Virus record (IMG/VR): IMGVR_UViG_2869976549_000004
Span: 1 to 14,909 of that record
Length of the DNA stretch: 14,909 bases
Reading direction: 5' to 3' (one strand)
From: a virus
Lineage: Duplodnaviria > Heunggongvirae > Uroviricota > Caudoviricetes
Shown: positions 1 to 9,971 of the stretch, in pieces
Layout: the number at the start of each line of letters is the position of its first letter
Numbering within the stretch: position 1 is the first letter of the stretch
Translations under genes and position numbers: made by a program
The notes under the pieces: model-generated
Told to the model about the DNA's origin: nothing
Seen by the model: the letters and a program-made list of their open reading frames with translations, nothing else
Database searches by the model: none

Positions 1-200
1 CACAACATCCGAGGACAGCATCGTCCGCCAGCCTACAGAAGTCCGGAAAGCCATGGAAGGTCGTTGGGAGGAGGTACGAATTCTATCATGCAAAAAATAC
101 GTAAAATCGATAACGCCTAGAAATCATTCAATACTCGCACTATCGAAAGTTTACCAGCCAACCGCGGCACGTTCCTGCATACGACGTGCCGCAGCTTCTG

Positions 201-395
201 TTATTCCACGATAAAATTCCTAACCGAATTCAAATCCTTCAGACTATTCAGCTCTTCCTTCAGCTCCCGCTGACGGCGATAAATCTCGTCATTGCGCTCA
301 ACCTGTGCCTGAGCCATTGCTGCCGCCAGTTCTTCCAGTTCCGGCATCGACAGTTTCACCTGCTGATTATCGGCATCACCCCACGTCCCGTACAA
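201..395 (-). CDS. hypothetical protein, function unknown
   Basis: 64-aa ORF from the six-frame track; charged, coiled-coil-like composition; no family recognised. Lies downstream of and overlapping the 376..756 ORF. Confidence 0.25.
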   Translation of the reverse strand: MYGTWGDADNQQVKLSMPELEELAAAMAQAQVERNDEIYRRQRELKEELNSLKDLNSVRNFIVE

Positions 396-756
396 TGTCG
401 GATTTCGCAGCCATTACCACCGGATAAGGGCGGCCCAGTGAGTTGGGGCCAGCATTCCAGATACGACCGTTCCATTCAAACGTGAACGGCTTCGCCTCCT
501 GTTCTGTGCGCCATGCTTCAATTCCCTGACGTCTGGCCTCTCTGGCCGCTTCCAGCATTTCTGGTGTCACAGTGAATGGGGCTATCTCACCCCATTTGCC
601 ACTTTGCAGTTCCTGCCAGATTCGCTGACCCGTCGGTGCGACATCATCAGCGGTGGCTGTGTAGGGGACTGCCTGGTCCCTGTCGTCAAAAAAAACGTCA
701 CAGTCTACTGCGCCACTTTCGGTATAACGGGGATTAATGATTTTTTTAATTTCCAC
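376..756 (-). CDS. hypothetical protein, function unknown (possible prophage tail-region protein)
   Basis: ORF track gives 376..816, but the upstream gene stops at 767..769 (TGA). An in-frame GTG at 756 preceded by GAGGAA is the likelier start, giving MEIKKIINPRY... No family recognised. Confidence 0.3.
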   Translation of the reverse strand: MEIKKIINPRYTESGAVDCDVFFDDRDQAVPYTATADDVAPTGQRIWQELQSGKWGEIAPFTVTPEMLEAAREARRQGIEAWRTEQEAKPFTFEWNGRIWNAGPNSLGRPYPVVMAAKSDIVRDVG

Positions 757-769
757 GGTGCATTCCTCA

Positions 770-1437
770 CGATGTGCGAATAAAAAGCCCGGGCATTGCG
801 CCAGAGACATGAGCATCCGGCACCCCGGACAGGGCGCTATATGACCCCGGTAATGAATGCTCTGAACATCCCGTAATGAAAAATTGTGGGGATGCTATAT
901 ACGTTCCGGTGGGAGTACTGGGCACTGAAATCCCCACCGGTCCCAGTCGTGAGCCTCTGTATGACTGCCCCCTGACAAGTCTGATGACTTTATCACCGTC
1001 AGCTTCTCCCTGGTACGCAGCAATAATCAGCCCGCCAATGTCAGGGTCTCCCCATCTGTTGCAGACAGAGCTCGCCACGATTCTGTAAATAATATCTTCT
1101 GTGGTTATATTTATTTTCACCCAGCCAGTCAGTCTGGATATGGGCCAGTAGCAGTAGCGGGTGTGATAAATGGGGCCGTTAATGCCGTAAAAAGTAAGGG
1201 ATTTGGCTCTGTACCTCGGTTCTGTTGTCTCAGGGCGTGCATCAGTCCACCGGATGCTGAGCACCCCTTCAAACCGTGTGTCGGGTATGATGATGTCGTA
1301 GGGGCCAGCAACGGAATATTCACCTGGCAGCGCATTCCTTACCCAGGCCAGGAAATCACTCTTAGTGTCAAAACGGATAACATCTTCAGGCAGAAAAGCA
1401 CACCCAAAGCCGAATGCGCCGGGTATCGCCAGACGGC
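770..1437 (-). pseudogene. C-terminal fragment (about 222 codons) of an unidentified protein, 5' part removed at the IS600 junction
   Basis: The frame is open from the IS600 end (1438) down to TGA at 767..769. The MPVHL start in the ORF track is encoded by the IS600 terminus, not native sequence. Product not recognised; tail-region origin is a guess from position only. Confidence 0.4.
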
Positions 1438-1480
1438 TGAGGTGTACTGGCAATAGCGGACACTACCATTTGTTCTTTTT

Positions 1481-2299
1481 TTAAGCAGCCATCTGATGAT
1501 ATTTTTCCCTGAAGGCTGCCGGGGAGATATTCCCCAGACGAGAGTGACGACGCTGACGATTGTAGAAAATCTCAATGTATTCCCGTATTACTGAGATGGC
1601 TTCATCCCGGTTATTAAAACGATAGTGGCTCAGGCTCTCATTTTTCAGCGTTCCCCAGAAGCTTTCCATCGGAGCGTTGTCGTAACAGTTACCTTTACGC
1701 GACATTGATGTTTTCAGACCAGACTGCTCCTGTATGACCCGGTAATCGTATGCGCAGTACTGTGAACCTCGATCAGAGTGGTGGATTAGCCCGGCAGGTG
1801 GGCGCTGGCTCCTGAGCGCCATAAACAGGGCTTTACCTGTCAGCTCTTTTGTCATGCGCTCTCCCATGGCGTAGCCGACAATTTCGCACGTATAAACATC
1901 TTTGATGCCAGCGAGGTACAACCATCCCTCCTGTGTGGCAACATACGTCAGGTCCGCCACCCAGACCTGATTTGGTGCTGTAGGAGCGAACGTCTGGTTC
2001 AGCAGATTTGGCGCAACTGGCAGATTGTGGTTCGAGTTCGTAGTCGCTCTGAACTTGCGTTTCTGCTTACAGCGTAGCCTTAGCTCCTTACGAAGACGTG
2101 CCAGTCGGTCACGACCAACGATGATGCCATTCTCTGCCAGCTCCGTCTGGAGCCGCCGGGTTCCATATGTTTCGCGAGTGCGGATATGTGCCACCTTAAT
2201 CTCCAGTTTTAGCCGCTCATCACTTTGTTTTCTGTCTGAGGGTTCATGCTGTACCCAGTTGTAATAACCGCTCCTGGATACACCAAATACCTGACACAT
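1481..2299 (-). CDS. IS600 OrfB transposase catalytic part (DDE integrase-like)
   Basis: 272-aa ORF identical to OrfB of copy B. Its upstream OrfA-OrfB fusion region is broken by the IS1 insertion. Confidence 0.85.
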   Translation of the reverse strand: MCQVFGVSRSGYYNWVQHEPSDRKQSDERLKLEIKVAHIRTRETYGTRRLQTELAENGIIVGRDRLARLRKELRLRCKQKRKFRATTNSNHNLPVAPNLLNQTFAPTAPNQVWVADLTYVATQEGWLYLAGIKDVYTCEIVGYAMGERMTKELTGKALFMALRSQRPPAGLIHHSDRGSQYCAYDYRVIQEQSGLKTSMSRKGNCYDNAPMESFWGTLKNESLSHYRFNNRDEAISVIREYIEIFYNRQRRHSRLGNISPAAFREKYHQMAA

Positions 2300-2372
2300 C
2301 GCTTCAATGGGAAATTGGGTGATGCTGCCAACTTACTGATTTAGTGTATGATGGTGTTTTTGAGGTGCTCCA

Positions 2373-2648
2373 GTGGCTTCTGTTTCTATCAGCTGTCCCT
2401 CCTGTTCAGCTACTGACGGGGTGGTGCGTAACGGCAAAAGCACTGCCGGACATCAGCGCTATCTCTGCTCTCACTGCCGTAAAACATGGCAACTGCAGTT
2501 CACTTACACCGCTTCTCAACCCGGTACGCACCAGAAAATCATTGATATGGCCATGAATGGCGTTGGATGCCGGGCAACTGCACGCATTATGGGCGTTGGC
2601 CTCAACACGATTTTACGTCACTTAAAAAACTCAGGCCGCAGTCGGTAA
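2373..2648 (+). CDS. insA: IS1 InsA
   Basis: 91-aa [25 protein letters not shown]..., the zinc-finger/HTH InsA protein of IS1. The A6C frameshift motif (2624..2630) is near its 3' end. Confidence 0.95.
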
Positions 2649-3070
2649 CCTCGCGCATACAGCCGGGCAGTGACGTCATCGTCTGCGCGGAAATGGACGA
2701 ACAGTGGGGCTATGTCGGGGCTAAATCGCGCCAGCGCTGGCTGTTTTACGCGTATGACAGTCTCCGGAAGACGGTTGTTGCGCACGTATTCGGTGAACGC
2801 ACTATGGCGACGCTGGGGCGTCTTATGAGCCTGCTGTCACCCTTTGACGTGGTGATATGGATGACGGATGGCTGGCCGCTGTATGAATCCCGCCTGAAGG
2901 GAAAGCTGCACGTAATCAGCAAGCGATATACGCAGCGAATTGAGCGGCATAACCTGAATCTGAGGCAGCACCTGGCACGGCTGGGACGGAAGTCGCTGTC
3001 GTTCTCAAAATCGGTGGAGCTGCATGACAAAGTCATCGGGCATTATCTGAACATAAAACACTATCAATAA
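2567..3070 (+). CDS. insB: IS1 InsB frame (expressed as InsAB' by -1 frameshift)
   Basis: 167-aa ORF matching IS1 InsB, in the -1 frame relative to insA. Confidence 0.9.
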
Positions 3071-3085
3071 GTTGGAGTCATTACC

Positions 3086-3370
3086 CGACTCCTGTGCAAA
3101 ATACGCTGTTGCTTTTTTTAATATATCTCGCTCAAGGCGAGCTTCATTTAACGCCTTACGCAGTTGCAGAATTTCAGATTCCAGTTCAGCCACCGTGCGG
3201 GAACCAGGAGTACCGAGCCCTTTTCTGGCGGCGGTAACCCATTGTCCTAAAGTGCCTTCAGGAAGAGATAATCGGGAAGCGCCTTCACTGATCGAAAGTT
3301 GATTTTCAGGAACCGTTCTGACAGCTTCGGCTTTGAACTCTTTAGAGTAACGTTGGGTTTTTCTGCTCAT
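3086..3370 (-). pseudogene. IS600 orfA, first 95 codons; 3' end replaced by the IS1 insertion
   Basis: Identical to orfA of copy B up to ...AYFAQES, then diverges into IS1 sequence. Confidence 0.85.
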
Positions 3371-3434
3371 TATTAGCTCCTTCTGATGCCATTCTATTTC
3401 AGGAAGGAGTGTCCGTTAAACTCAGGCTACCTCA

Positions 3435-3471
3435 TTCTGGCGAGTCGTTTTTTGGAGTGTTCGCGGGCTTT
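3435..3471 (-). pseudogene. 37-bp sliver between IS600 copy A and IS21, probably a continuation of the terminase large subunit reading frame
   Basis: After removing IS21 and one copy of the CTTT duplication, the terminase frame continues without a stop (K-A-R-E-H-S-K-K-R-L-A-R) to the IS600 end. Twelve open codons is weak evidence. Confidence 0.3.
3468..3471. repeat. IS21 target-site duplication CTTT (low-coordinate copy)
   Basis: CTTT immediately flanks both IS21 termini (3468..3471 and 5602..5605); 4 bp could match by chance. Confidence 0.5.
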
Positions 3472-3530
3472 TGTCAACGCCACGATGTTTGACCGTTATT
3501 TGCCATTTTCATGCCCGCTAAATACTTTCG

Positions 3531-5500
<1,970 letters not shown>

Positions 5501-5601
5501 GTTGATGTCCTTTCTGGTGTGAGAACCTTAAGGAAACAACATGTTGGGTGGAGCGGACAATCCAAATGGCGAATTACCGTCTTATATCACTGGCGCTGAC
5601 A

Positions 5602-5605
5602 CTTT
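5602..5605. repeat. IS21 target-site duplication CTTT (high-coordinate copy)
   Basis: Matches 3468..3471. Confidence 0.5.
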
Positions 5606-5926
5606 TTCCTCCGTCATCTGAATAATCAGCATATCAGCAGGATCGCAAATCACGTTGTAAATCACCCAGCCGTCAATCAGGCCGATAGTCTTGCCGGTTC
5701 GTGCCGGGCCAACAAATATCACTGCGTCGTATTCACGCGAGGCCAGGCAGTTCATCGGCTCAATAACATACGGTGCCACCAGCGGATCCCACGGGACTGA
5801 GTTCCCTGCCCCCATGGGCACCCGCATATACTGAGCAACGGCATCAGCAACCCGCATTCGTCTCGGTGCGCGAAGGATATAACCTGAATCGGTTCGTGCT
5901 GCCTTTGCGGTTTCCTGATTCAGCAT
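5602..5926 (-). pseudogene. Terminase large subunit (lambda gpA family), N-terminal ~108 codons, truncated by IS21
   Basis: Start ATG at 5926 overlaps the small-subunit stop (TAATG). Contains a P-loop (VGPARTGKT) at the position of lambda gpA's KSARVGYSK. The ORF-track stop at 5582 lies inside the IS21 terminus. Confidence 0.75.
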
Positions 5927-6420
5927 TACTCCTCCTGCTGTAATTCCTCCTCATCATCCGCACCTGCTTCAGTCACCCGCAGGGCTATCTGATCGCGCAG
6001 ATCATCAATAATGGACTGAACACGGCTCACAGCGGCAGGCTGCAGACCGCAGTCACGTTCAAGAATATCCGGTAATGTCTCCAGCACCTGCACGACCGCT
6101 TTTGCCCAGATGGCAAACTCCCGTCTGACATCACTGGCCGGAATGAGTTGTGCCGTTTCCTGTTCGAACTTAAGACGCTCACGTTCAGACTGATACCAGG
6201 CTTTGCGCTCATGCGCGTCCATTTCGCCTTCTGCAACCGGCGGTGGTAATGCCAGAAATGCCGACACAATATCAACCACCCGATAAAGCTTGAGGTTGCT
6301 TTCATGCCCCCCTGCAACGGGTAGATTTTGCAGCCTTGCCGCAGCAGTCTGGCGATGTACACCTGACAGTGCCGCCAGTTGACTGATATTCAGCGTCAGA
6401 TTTTTTAACTCTCGATCCAT
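5926..6420 (-). CDS. Terminase small subunit (Nu1-like)
   Basis: 164 aa; the N-terminal LNISQLAALSGVHRQTAAARLQ region resembles the Nu1 winged-HTH; acidic C-terminus; sits between cos and the large-subunit gene. Confidence 0.75.
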   Translation of the reverse strand: MDRELKNLTLNISQLAALSGVHRQTAAARLQNLPVAGGHESNLKLYRVVDIVSAFLALPPPVAEGEMDAHERKAWYQSERERLKFEQETAQLIPASDVRREFAIWAKAVVQVLETLPDILERDCGLQPAAVSRVQSIIDDLRDQIALRVTEAGADDEEELQQEE

Positions 6421-6522
6421 ACCCGCTCCAGAATGTTTTAAACATGCATCTTGCGAACAACTTTAGGCAAACGGTGTTAGTGATGAACAAAAAACAATCA
6501 AAATCGACACCATAAAAATAAA

Positions 6523-6552
6523 ACTACTGTAATATCAATCCATTACAGTAGT
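6523..6552. repeat. Perfect 11-bp inverted repeat with 8-bp spacer (actactgtaat-atcaatcc-attacagtagt) in the cosB-equivalent region
   Basis: Read directly from the sequence; lies between the predicted cosN and the Nu1 start codon. Confidence 0.6.
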
Positions 6553-6590
6553 GGTGATGACGAATGAAATTTCAAAAACTAGCCTTTTTC

Positions 6591-6640
6591 CGCGCCGCTC
6601 CCGCCCCGTGGCAGGCCACCCCACCGGGAGGACCCGTCAG
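6591..6640 (-). other. cos site candidate (cosN plus cosQ-like element)
   Basis: Minus strand reads GACGGGTCCTCCCGGTG-(15 nt ending ACG)-GGGCGGGAGCGG-CGCGG. Lambda has ACGGGTCCTTTCCGGTG-(15 nt ending ACG)-GGGCGGCGACCT-CGCGG. Flanks and cosQ-like block are conserved; the 12-nt core differs at 6 positions. Lambda sequence is recalled from memory. Confidence 0.45.
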
Positions 6641-6777
6641 CCTGACAGCCATGACGAACGTCTGATACAGCGCCCTGCATGAATGACATCGGGATAATCC
6701 AGAAAGGAATAGCATCGTACCCACAAGAATCAGTGTAAGTGTCCTGTTTCTTCCACCCCCGCACAGGACTGGCGAGC

Positions 6778-6954
6778 ATGAGGGACAAACCCGCGAACCA
6801 TAAACGCGGTAAAAACCCGGTGTGCATCGTTTTTGATTATTCCCGCACACTCGCGCAGAAGGAGTTCCCCGTCGGGCTACGGTCATGGTTAATACGGGAA
6901 TACGACGACGATACAGCGCATGATGTGTCAGGCTTGAATACCTTTATCCGTTAA
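6778..6954 (+). CDS. hypothetical small protein (58 aa from ATG 6778; ORF track starts at GTG 6739) in the bor/moron position
   Basis: Opposite strand to the lysis genes; AGGA 9 nt upstream of the ATG; followed by a plus-strand terminator-like hairpin at 7001..7029. No family recognised. Confidence 0.3.
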   Translation: MRDKPANHKRGKNPVCIVFDYSRTLAQKEFPVGLRSWLIREYDDDTAHDVSGLNTFIR

Positions 6955-7000
6955 AAGGGATATCAGTTAAGTTATCCCGTGTAGGGTATAAGCCATTATC

Positions 7001-7029
7001 AAAGCCACTCTGTAGGAAGTGGCTTTTGT
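7001..7029 (+). terminator. putative intrinsic terminator (8-bp stem aagccact/agtggctt, then TTTTGT)
   Basis: Hairpin plus T-run read from sequence, 47 nt downstream of the small plus-strand ORF. Confidence 0.4.
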
Positions 7030-7035
7030 AATGGC

Positions 7036-7062
7036 AATAAAAAGCCCCGCGAATGCGAGGCT
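7036..7062 (-). terminator. putative intrinsic terminator downstream of Rz
   Basis: Minus-strand RNA gccucgc-auuc-gcggggc (7-bp stem with one G-U pair) followed by UUUUUAUU. Confidence 0.5.
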
Positions 7063-7235
7063 AAATCCTGGTATTTGTAATGACTGGCTCTTATCTCAAC
7101 GCAGCCCCTTACCGCGCGCAAAATGCTCAATATCAAGCATCAGCAATGAGATGTTTAATCTGGATTCACTCCAGAAGTGAGCACCACCCTGTCTACAGAG
7201 CCAGATGTGAAGGATGATGAGTAAAATTATCGCTA

Positions 7236-7703
7236 TCATCGAAGGCATTGCGTCCTGATGTATTCCTGAAGCGTTCTCAGTGCTGTTTGGTCGCGGATAA
7301 TTCCGTCCCGGATACCGAGAACGTTTCGTCCAGCAACTGGAGAGAGTTCGACGGTGGCATCATTGCCCATGCCGGAGGCGCTGGAGGTTTCGGCTGAGGA
7401 TGGCACAGGGCATTTTCCTTTGACGAGCACCCGACCACCATTATCAAGCTTGCGCCGAAGAGCATCATTTTCAGCTTTCGCATCAGCTAACTCCTTCGTG
7501 TATTTAGCATCGAGTGCATCAGCATCACGCTGGCGCTGCTGCATGTCAGTAATGGTTGCGTTCGCCAGCTTCAGTTCTCTTGCGTTTTTGTCGCGCTGCT
7601 CTTTGTAGGTAATGGCGTTATCACGGTAATGATTAACAGCCCATGACAGGCGGACGATGATGCAGATAACCAGAGCGGAGATAATCGCGGTGACTCTGCT
7701 CAT
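7236..7703 (-). CDS. Rz: Spanin inner-membrane subunit Rz
   Basis: [17 protein letters not shown]... closely resembles lambda Rz; ATG at 7703 overlaps the R stop (ATGA). ORF track starts 4 codons earlier at 7715. Confidence 0.85.
7277..7483 (-). CDS. Rz1: Spanin outer-membrane lipoprotein Rz1, embedded in Rz in the +1 frame
   Basis: 68 aa with signal peptide and lipobox (LIMVVGCSS) and a proline-rich segment ([11 protein letters not shown]). Confidence 0.8.
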
Positions 7704-8197
7704 TGCTGCCCCCACAAACAGACTTCACGCTCAATCTCACGACGGGTCATCAGCCCTTTCCATTGCTTACCGCCAGCATATGTCCAGCGACGTAGCTGGT
7801 CACATGCGCCTTTGATATAGCCCTGGTTTATTTTGCGAAGAAGCGTCGATGTTCTGAAATTGCCAGCGCCCACGTTGTAAACGAACGAGTAAAGAGCGCC
7901 GCGCGTTGTTTCCGGTATATCGACTTTGATGTACGGGTTAATTTGTCTGGCGACAGTGGCAAGGTCTTTATTCAGGAGAGCTTTGCATTCTGCTTCGGTA
8001 TACGTTTTACCAGGCATGATGTCTTTTCCGGTGTGTCCGTGACATACAGTCCATACACCAATGATATCTTTGTATGGTATGTAGCTGACACCTTCCAGAC
8101 CATCGTTACCACCTGGGCCAGTGATTAACACAGATGCTATAGCAACAGCCCCGCCACCAATAGCAACTGCAACAGCCTTGCGTAATGATGGCGACAT
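7700..8197 (-). CDS. R: SAR endolysin (phage 21 R-type lysozyme)
   Basis: 165 aa; N-terminal Gly/Ala-rich signal-anchor-release domain ([18 protein letters not shown]), then the E-x8-D-x5-T lysozyme motif; strongly resembles phage 21 R as I recall it. Confidence 0.9.
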
Positions 8198-8412
8198 TAT
8201 TCACCTCTCGCAGCCTTACGCTTATCTTCTCTTATTTTGAAATACAGATTCGTCAGATAAGTCAGAAGCCCCAGAAGCAGACTTCCCAGCACACCAATCG
8301 CAGCCCACTGTGATGGACTGACCTGATCCAACCACTGCAAAAACCAGTAGCCGGCACTGCCGGCGGAGGTGCCGTAGGCAATGCCCGTTGAAATTTTGTC
8401 CATGGATTTCAT
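8197..8412 (-). CDS. S: Pinholin S (phage 21 S-type), dual-start holin/antiholin
   Basis: [27 protein letters not shown]..., 71 aa with Met1-Lys-Ser-Met4 dual start; SD GGAGGTGAGG upstream; stop overlaps the R start (TAATG). The 125-aa ORF-track version begins inside the IS600 end. Confidence 0.9.
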
Positions 8413-8522
8413 AGCCTCACCTCCGCAAATAACGGATGGCGTAGTTTTACACTGAGAAATGAAAGGGATTTGAAAAGAAAAAAACGCAAAAGCGGGCGAA
8501 ACGATATATACAGTAAGGAAAG

Positions 8523-8525
8523 CAC
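8523..8525. repeat. IS600 copy B target-site duplication CAC (left copy)
   Basis: CAC directly flanks both ends (8523..8525 and 9790..9792); 3-bp duplications are typical of the IS3 family. Confidence 0.55.
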
Positions 8526-8589
8526 TGAGGTAGCCTGAGTTTAACGGACACTCCTTCCTGAAATAGAATGGCATCAGAAGGAGCTAATA

Positions 8590-8892
8590 ATGAGCAGAAA
8601 AACCCAACGTTACTCTAAAGAGTTCAAAGCCGAAGCTGTCAGAACGGTTCCTGAAAATCAACTTTCGATCAGTGAAGGCGCTTCCCGATTATCTCTTCCT
8701 GAAGGCACTTTAGGACAATGGGTTACCGCCGCCAGAAAAGGGCTCGGTACTCCTGGTTCCCGCACGGTGGCTGAACTGGAATCTGAAATTCTGCAACTGC
8801 GTAAGGCGTTAAATGAAGCTCGCCTTGAGCGAGATATATTAAAAAAAGCAACAGCGTATTTTGCACAGGAGTCGCTGAAAAATACGCGTTAA
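8590..8892 (+). CDS. IS600 OrfA (HTH DNA-binding transposase subunit)
   Basis: 100-aa ORF MSRKTQRYSKEFKAEAVRTV... with a leucine-zipper-like C-terminus. Confidence 0.9.
   Translation: MSRKTQRYSKEFKAEAVRTVPENQLSISEGASRLSLPEGTLGQWVTAARKGLGTPGSRTVAELESEILQLRKALNEARLERDILKKATAYFAQESLKNTR
8841..8847 (+). other. Programmed -1 ribosomal frameshift heptamer A-AAA-AAA (OrfA to OrfAB fusion)
   Basis: A7 run in the orfA zero frame; orfB is in the -1 frame. The same motif is at 13470..13476 in copy C and as T7 at 3113..3119 in copy A. Confidence 0.6.
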
Positions 8893-8927
8893 TCGAACAA
8901 TGGCGACAACAATTTCCCATTGAAGCG

Positions 8928-9746
8928 ATGTGTCAGGTATTTGGTGTATCCAGGAGCGGTTATTACAACTGGGTACAGCATGAACCCTCAGACAGAAAAC
9001 AAAGTGATGAGCGGCTAAAACTGGAGATTAAGGTGGCACATATCCGCACTCGCGAAACATATGGAACCCGGCGGCTCCAGACGGAGCTGGCAGAGAATGG
9101 CATCATTGTTGGTCGTGACCGACTGGCACGTCTTCGTAAGGAGCTAAGGCTACGCTGTAAGCAGAAACGCAAGTTCAGAGCGACTACGAACTCGAACCAC
9201 AATCTGCCAGTTGCGCCAAATCTGCTGAACCAGACGTTCGCTCCTACAGCACCAAATCAGGTCTGGGTGGCGGACCTGACGTATGTTGCCACACAGGAGG
9301 GATGGTTGTACCTCGCTGGCATCAAAGATGTTTATACGTGCGAAATTGTCGGCTACGCCATGGGAGAGCGCATGACAAAAGAGCTGACAGGTAAAGCCCT
9401 GTTTATGGCGCTCAGGAGCCAGCGCCCACCTGCCGGGCTAATCCACCACTCTGATCGAGGTTCACAGTACTGCGCATACGATTACCGGGTCATACAGGAG
9501 CAGTCTGGTCTGAAAACATCAATGTCGCGTAAAGGTAACTGTTACGACAACGCTCCGATGGAAAGCTTCTGGGGAACGCTGAAAAATGAGAGCCTGAGCC
9601 ACTATCGTTTTAATAACCGGGATGAAGCCATCTCAGTAATACGGGAATACATTGAGATTTTCTACAATCGTCAGCGTCGTCACTCTCGTCTGGGGAATAT
9701 CTCCCCGGCAGCCTTCAGGGAAAAATATCATCAGATGGCTGCTTAA
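8928..9746 (+). CDS. IS600 OrfB (DDE catalytic domain), expressed as OrfAB fusion
   Basis: 272-aa ORF in the -1 frame relative to orfA. Confidence 0.9.
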   Translation: MCQVFGVSRSGYYNWVQHEPSDRKQSDERLKLEIKVAHIRTRETYGTRRLQTELAENGIIVGRDRLARLRKELRLRCKQKRKFRATTNSNHNLPVAPNLLNQTFAPTAPNQVWVADLTYVATQEGWLYLAGIKDVYTCEIVGYAMGERMTKELTGKALFMALRSQRPPAGLIHHSDRGSQYCAYDYRVIQEQSGLKTSMSRKGNCYDNAPMESFWGTLKNESLSHYRFNNRDEAISVIREYIEIFYNRQRRHSRLGNISPAAFREKYHQMAA

Positions 9747-9789
9747 AAAAAGAACAAATGGTAGTGTCCGCTATTGCCAGTACACCTCA

Positions 9790-9792
9790 CAC
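9790..9792. repeat. IS600 copy B target-site duplication CAC (right copy)
   Basis: Matches 8523..8525. Confidence 0.55.
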
Positions 9793-9971
9793 TCTATCCA
9801 ACAAACCACCCACAGTTAATCGGAATAAAAGCAGAGTGCTTATGAATGATCGCACGCCCGAAGGTTAGTATTTCTGCACAGCAATTTTGCAAAAAAAGGC
9901 GATCATTCATAACTTAAACGTCTTTCAGTCACTCCGGGATTTCCCATCATCGCAGACTGAAAGACTCTGAC

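Follow-up and report, generated by a model that had tools for sequence, protein, structure and literature searches.

An IS600 element in the leader of a phage lysis cassette

We analysed a 14,909-bp stretch of DNA, hereafter the window, that corresponds to positions 1 to 14,909 of IMG/VR record IMGVR_UViG_2869976549_000004 (Caudoviricetes). It carries a phage late operon, encoded on the minus strand, and an insertion sequence (IS), IS600 copy B, interrupts the leader of this operon between a cluster of transfer RNA (tRNA) genes and the holin gene, S. The element and its duplicated target comprise the following features.

8523-8525: left CAC, 3-bp target-site duplication of IS600 copy B, present as a single CAC in empty sites
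8526-9789, plus strand: IS600 copy B, a complete IS3-family element of 1264 bp, antisense to the phage late operon
8590-8892, plus strand: IS600 orfA, 100 amino acids (aa), HTH_Tnp_1 (PF01527)
8928-9746, plus strand: IS600 orfB, 272 aa, DDE integrase core with HTH_21 and rve (PF13276, PF00665, PF13683)
9790-9792: right CAC, 3-bp target-site duplication of IS600 copy B, present as a single CAC in empty sites

Copy B begins TGAGGTAGCC... at one side and finishes ...GTACACCTCA at the other, with TG...CA termini and imperfect terminal inverted repeats. A slippery A7 run at 8846-8852 lies ahead of the orfA/orfB overlap, and a -1 frameshift is predicted for this copy; the RefSeq label on a homologous IS600 element reads "programmed frameshift". 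Over its full length copy B is 99.2-99.5% identical to RefSeq "IS3-like element IS600 family transposase" elements, and it differs from a second copy in the window (copy C) at 3 positions. Length and ends, two overlapping open reading frames (ORFs), near-identity, and a duplication with a corresponding empty site all identify the element as IS600. It stands 113 bp (8413-8525) from the holin, whose start codon occupies 8412-8410 on the minus strand, and the right CAC duplication is 179 bp from the end of tRNA-Gly at 9972.

Uninterrupted target sites in relatives

Three-base flanking triplets agree by chance once in 64 cases, so we turned to a direct test with the flanks rejoined. The flanks of copy B, joined with one CAC, served as query against relatives, and gave one continuous alignment in 494 complete Escherichia coli genomes. 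The best match was E. coli FDAARGOS_943, with 99.0% identity over all 934 bases, and the rejoined flanks also aligned to the isolated phages PhiR47_1, vB_EcoS-689R5, vB_EcoM-606R7 and phi467. In the alignments, a single CAC with identical flanks occupies the empty site in E. coli FDAARGOS_943 and CFSAN029787; the unoccupied site of PhiR47_1 likewise has one CAC.

Exact matches to a 30-mer spanning the empty site were found at 72 loci, in 70 IMG/VR viral contigs and in one E. coli and one S. flexneri genome of GTDB. The junction was crossed without interruption at every one of them, three IMG/VR contigs matched the reconstructed site with 100% identity and without a gap along 534 bp, and the sequence from the holin ATG to tRNA-Gly was contiguous in 69 of the 72. 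Loci with an interrupted interval would escape these searches, which stop short of a strict demonstration that the interval never carries cargo. The occupied left junction of copy B found no match among the GTDB species-representative genomes, and neither scan of that set (occupied left junction, empty site) returned a Shigella sonnei record among its matches.

An initial annotation of the window, made from its letters, had described copy B as a clean insertion with a CAC duplication. The ungapped empty sites with their single CAC bear this out, and the insertion is as clean as sequence can show for a transposition. Boundary analysis likewise returned the dimensions given there (1264 bp, CAC, 113 bp to S), and the gene layout agrees with its placement of copy B in the late leader, between the block of Q, terminator and tRNAs and the lysis genes.

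The native leader and its neighbouring genes

With copy B removed, the leader is 292 nt long and non-coding, and the element sits after about nt 179. The genes around it are arranged as follows, in the direction of late transcription.

11313-11912, minus strand: DUF1367 gene
11023-11313, minus strand: YbcO gene
10472-11026, minus strand: late-gene antiterminator Q homologue, 184 aa, DUF1133 (PF06576, E=4e-107)
10366-10400, minus strand: tR'-like intrinsic-terminator hairpin and U-run between Q and the tRNAs, 13-bp stem; region z = -3.8
9972-10282, minus strand: four phage tRNA genes, CAT, Arg-TCT, Thr-TGT and Gly-TCC (ARAGORN, Rfam)
9793-9971, minus strand: tRNA-proximal native leader, with two long hairpins directly after tRNA-Gly
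8413-8522, minus strand: holin-proximal native leader, with a degenerate hairpin and T-run about 60-90 nt upstream of the holin start
8197-8412, minus strand: class II holin of the phage 21 S type, 71 aa, intact (PF04971, E=1e-35)
7700-8197, minus strand: phage lysozyme, RrrD-like, 165 aa, intact (PF00959)
7236-7703, minus strand: Rz-type lysis protein, 155 aa from ATG, intact (PF03245)
5926-6420, minus strand: DUF1441 (Nu1-like) gene
5582-5926, minus strand: terminase gpA fragment, 114 codons

The two hairpins after tRNA-Gly have an 11-bp stem with a 23-nt loop and a 13-bp stem with a loop of about 45 nt; they may be terminators that shield S from read-through from a tRNA promoter. The hairpin and T-run before the holin (8470-8500, minus strand) is perfect in CFSAN029787 and degenerate in the window. 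Rfam searches of the window at gathering thresholds returned the four tRNAs only, with no known small RNA or riboswitch in the leader or the IS. The tRNA cluster natively abuts the holin in this phage lineage, and no gene was destroyed and no cargo displaced by the IS.

The late genes open with the lysis cassette S-R-Rz (PF04971, then PF00959, then PF03245), each gene at full length, and the holin/endolysin region is 87% identical in nucleotide sequence to that of phage 21. The holin begins MKSMDK, and this dual start (MKSM) conforms to the S21-family class II type. The lysozyme has a Gly/Ala-rich N-terminal segment typical of signal-anchor-release (SAR) endolysins, and is probably one of these.

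Upstream, the Q homologue also scores above the Pfam cut-off for PF06530 Phage_antitermQ (28.4 bits vs 26), and it carries the description "Late gene regulator" in the protein collection searched. The hairpin and U-run at 10366-10400 stands about 75-105 nt after Q. A TTGACG overlaps the Q stop codon; no good -10 or qut was recognised downstream of it, and a consensus scan listed no promoter there.

The tRNA genes vary in their reading and among relatives. The CAT tRNA is Met according to ARAGORN and Ile (lysidine type) according to the Prokaryotic Genome Annotation Pipeline (PGAP) in relatives; the last tRNA is a 71-nt tRNA-Val by PGAP in two relatives, and Lys replaces Arg in some. In the FDAARGOS_943 locus (L001) the block lies at 7609-7915. 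We take the tRNAs of the window to decode the E. coli rare codons AUA, AGA, ACA and GGA. A promoter-like TTTGCA-18-TATTAT lies immediately upstream of the first tRNA (10292-10321, minus strand), in a stretch 75% identical to the region of phage 933W with the annotated tRNA promoter pT.

A prophage remnant half made of insertion sequences

The window is 100% identical to CP022672.1 across all 14,909 bp, and the exactly matching junction protein from that record has the source name Shigella sonnei. There the window is flanked by a 311-aa PF01171 (TtcA-like) gene and by a sitABCD-like ABC transporter; the former is probably ttcA, on the Rac attachment side. Three copies of IS600, two of IS1 and one IS21 account for 7422 of the 14,909 bp (50%). 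Beside copy B these are:

1438-3434, minus strand: IS600 copy A, flanks GAA/GCC without duplication, joining the gpA fragment to tail-fibre genes
2318-3085: IS1 splitting IS600 copy A, without a 9-bp duplication
3473-5601: complete IS21, 2129 bp, with IstA (390 aa) and IstB (266 aa), ends TGTCA...TGACA
12248-13015: IS1 without duplication; by comparison with related locus L005, apparently the recombination product of two IS1 copies
13155-14418: IS600 copy C, flanks TAG/TTG without duplication

According to the initial annotation, no IS copy in the window but copy B had a matching duplication. This holds for IS600 copies A and C and for both copies of IS1, but fails for IS21, which had been overlooked: it carries a 5-bp duplication, CTTTT, at 3468-3472 and 5602-5606, and interrupts the terminase gpA fragment. 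The empty site of IS21, with one CTTTT, is found in the related locus L010, and copies on S. sonnei pINV match the element with 100% identity.

The other copies bear the marks of rearrangement. Copy C stands between an integrase fragment (14403-14909) and 140 bp of an early gene from the DUF977 region, which it joins. Copy A is without 35 bp of IS600 (equivalent to 8875-8909), which suggests a deletion adjacent to its IS1. By comparison with L005, the IS1 at 12248-13015 appears to carry an IS1 x IS1 deletion in which about 2.7 kb was lost; in L005 (2495-6779), L006 and L009, two IS1 copies enclose about 2.7 kb with DUF4014, HNH, DUF551 and hok. We also considered whether the three IS600 copies had exchanged flanks by inversion or deletion, and rejected this, since no swap of GAA/GCC, CAC/CAC and TAG/TTG gives matching triplets. 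A 5-nt extension of repeat I3 past the IS600 ends was set aside as a chance partial match (CAGAA vs CATAG).

No repressor or immunity, replication, head or tail-shaft genes are left in the window; IS-mediated deletions took away the immunity, replication and head genes. With the immunity and replication region lost, the normal pR-dependent, SOS-inducible route to Q is therefore gone, and the remnant is not inducible as a phage.

The same insertion in related genomes

Both junctions of copy B are also present in L010 (CP061367.1), where an IS911-like element with a GTA duplication is nested inside it. This nested element occupies 10055-11303 of L010, equivalent to about position 8975 of the window, and has the ends TGAAGTGGTC...CCACTTCA. 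Four further loci, L005, L006, L007 and L009, hold the right junction only: at about 9238-11000 the left end abuts the first 482 bp of another IS600 (255 bp in L006), beyond which lie the tail genes M-L-K-I-J, and S-R-Rz, Nu1 and gpA' are no longer there. In these four the lysis cassette has been lost or moved. The insertion therefore predates the divergence of these S. sonnei-type genomes. The demonstrable consequence of copy B is structural: it has been a recombination substrate, supplying portable homology for rearrangements mediated by IS600. A literature search on the accessions of the related genomes gave no hit.

Independent IS hits in this module are also found in further prophages that share this Q protein. 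In E. coli FDAARGOS_943, the E. coli relative closest to the window in this module, an IS600 lies in the lysozyme gene (L001 5726-6989) while the leader between tRNAs and holin is unoccupied, and in L008 and L011 an IS3-family element stands between Q and the holin, cutting the tRNA cluster.

A simple insertion of probably little consequence for lysis

We are confident that copy B arose by simple transposition, neutral or nearly so in effect, into the 292-nt untranslated leader of a lysis cassette that belongs to a decayed lambdoid prophage of S. sonnei, probably at the ttcA (Rac) site. In doing so IS600 generated its usual 3-bp duplication, here CAC, and left genes intact and cargo undisplaced. 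Q-modified polymerase would be expected to read through the antisense element. Polymerase without this modification, such as that from the tRNA promoter, would meet 1264 nt of extra untranslated RNA, a plausible substrate for Rho and probably polar. Any effect on phage lysis would have become moot after the loss of the immunity, replication and head genes, and the uncoupling of lysis from the late promoter that the initial annotation had envisaged is probably moot as well. Both the IS and its kind of target are known, the S. sonnei genome is rich in IS, and copy B is an instance of ordinary Shigella genome decay; scans of the window sequence gave no evidence of a regulatory role for it.

Several points weigh against this interpretation. 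We infer both neutrality and read-through from established Q biology, while for pR' of the DUF1133-type Q no good -10 is recognisable after the TTGACG at the Q stop codon. Moreover, lysis cassettes of cryptic prophages can be expressed with phenotypes for the host, as reported for DLP12, and copy B may have some effect on expression of the cryptic lysis cassette.

A stronger effect would be one in which IS600 stops or attenuates late transcription before S and has been kept as protection of the host from the pinholin/SAR-endolysin cassette. No damage is seen in Q, the tR'-like terminator, the tRNAs or S-R-Rz, so that the cassette is in principle still dangerous; the insertion adds 1264 nt of untranslated antisense RNA, in which the longest antisense ORF has 97 codons; and the IS hits in the same module of FDAARGOS_943, L008 and L011 could be seen in the same light. 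We nevertheless consider this explanation unlikely. RNA polymerase modified by Q is resistant to both intrinsic and Rho-dependent termination for tens of kilobases, and the late transcript of 933W must pass several annotated terminators and 4.5 kb before S, on a path with three tRNAs, stx2AB and 3 kb more. The minus-strand terminator-like sites within copy B are weak, with poor T-tails, and not above the frequency in shuffled sequence (4 vs 2.7 +/- 1.7). Loss of the immunity and replication region had already ended the inducible route to Q. Finally, because half of this DNA is IS, hits in the module need no special explanation, and no selective explanation is required for any one spot.

A broader form of this idea would take the IS hits in the Q-tRNA-S-R module of Shigella and enteroinvasive E. 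coli (EIEC) prophages together, as retained because they insulate an intact cassette from read-through from the constitutive tRNA promoter or Q, and as seeding the IS600 deletions by which the cassette is in the end removed. We see only a slim chance that this is so; if true, it would describe a stepwise, selected route by which cryptic lysis modules are disarmed.

It is very improbable that copy B is instead an activating insertion, whose left end would supply an outward or hybrid promoter, or a translational start, from which the holin is expressed without Q. A mechanically called ORF of 125 aa (8197-8574, minus strand) does begin within the left end of IS600, at an ATG, and reads in frame through the leader into the holin. 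We rejected this IS600-holin fusion as a product: no Shine-Dalgarno sequence precedes the ATG at 8574, the protein is absent from a collection of 15 billion proteins and hence called by no pipeline, and an N-terminal extension of 54 residues on a pinholin would probably be non-functional. The initial annotation had raised the possibility of a hybrid outward promoter at the IS600 left end, and none is detectable at either end. On the minus strand near 8413-8640 the consensus promoter scan listed nothing resembling a sigma-70 site, the only nearby match being at 8541-8569 on the plus strand, directed into the IS; the same scan found no hybrid promoter at the right end, where a TTGCCA, inspected by eye, is without a -10 partner 16-18 nt downstream.

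Taken as a simple transposition, copy B is a dated marker common to several S. sonnei-type genomes that later diverged through independent IS600- and IS1-mediated deletions, and it could help to reconstruct rearrangements at the ttcA-side prophage remnant. The analysis also corrects the IS inventory of the window, with IS21 and its own duplication added, and establishes that this S. sonnei locus is not a degraded Shiga toxin (Stx) phage and that no toxin genes have been lost from it. Beyond such bookkeeping the insertion has little significance.

Comparison with Stx phages, related prophages and other IS600 insertions

In phage 933W the module runs Q, pR', terminators, tRNA promoter, three tRNAs, terminator, stx2AB, two more genes and S, and the order in the window is equivalent. 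Nucleotide identity between the two is 75% in the tRNA block (pT/ileZ-argN-argO), 73% in the holin and 84% in Rz. The distance from the tRNAs to S is 4458 bp in 933W, with stx2AB, a SASA esterase gene and one further ORF, whereas in the window it is natively 292 bp and non-coding. The initial annotation had equated the interval with the site of stxAB in Stx phages, and the shared module order and homologous flanks justify this; the interval is the positional equivalent of the 933W stx2AB site, and only that. DLP12 offers another late-region "moron" slot, with nmpC::IS5 between quuD and essD.

Neither stxA or stxB nor other cargo ORFs were found in the window by its ORF list and Pfam profile searches, in agreement with the statement in the initial annotation that toxin genes are missing. 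Its hint that cargo belonged here and was lost did not survive, as the interval is short and empty in every relative examined, and naturally short, cargo-free relatives were what the annotation itself had named as a refutation. We give next to no credence to the notion that stx or another moron once stood between the tRNAs and S and that IS600 marks its deletion: the positional equivalence with 933W speaks for it, as does the IS600 that precedes stx in the prophage of S. dysenteriae 1 (PMC7819885), but it is already refuted by the empty-site alignments, in which a matching 3-bp duplication meets ungapped, 100%-identical sites with nothing missing. The 292-bp interval is also standard in hundreds of genomes and in isolated phages, and the S. 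dysenteriae 1 stx prophage lies at sapC-ycjW while our remnant adjoins a TtcA-like gene.

The S. dysenteriae 1 locus, to which the initial annotation had pointed for comparison, is thus not the same element as the window. Its stx prophage at sapC-ycjW has its own IS600 upstream of stx (PMC7819885). This defective Stx prophage is likewise an IS-riddled lambdoid remnant, with the IS600 in the late region upstream of the stx position (PMC7819885). It differs in species, in locus (sapC-ycjW as opposed to the ttcA side) and in the presence of stx, and the IS600 in the window has a duplication and an empty site.

Close counterparts are the phages PhiR47_1, vB_EcoS-689R5, vB_EcoM-606R7 and phi467 and the EIEC prophages of CFSAN029787 and FDAARGOS_943, which have the same module of tRNAs, leader and holin at 92-99% identity, with the site unoccupied. 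These are complete or far more so, with terminase, portal and head genes, whereas the window keeps only the segment from Q to gpA'.

Copy B shares its length, ends, ORFs, A7 run, 3-bp duplication and identity of more than 99% with annotated IS600 insertions in Shigella chromosomes and prophage remnants. Also shared is the occurrence of several near-identical copies in one 15-kb stretch, some without duplications as a result of IS-mediated deletions. From ordinary Shigella IS600 insertions copy B differs in nothing of substance, and what is specific to it is its target alone, the leader of a phage-21-type lysis cassette in a ttcA-site remnant of S. sonnei.

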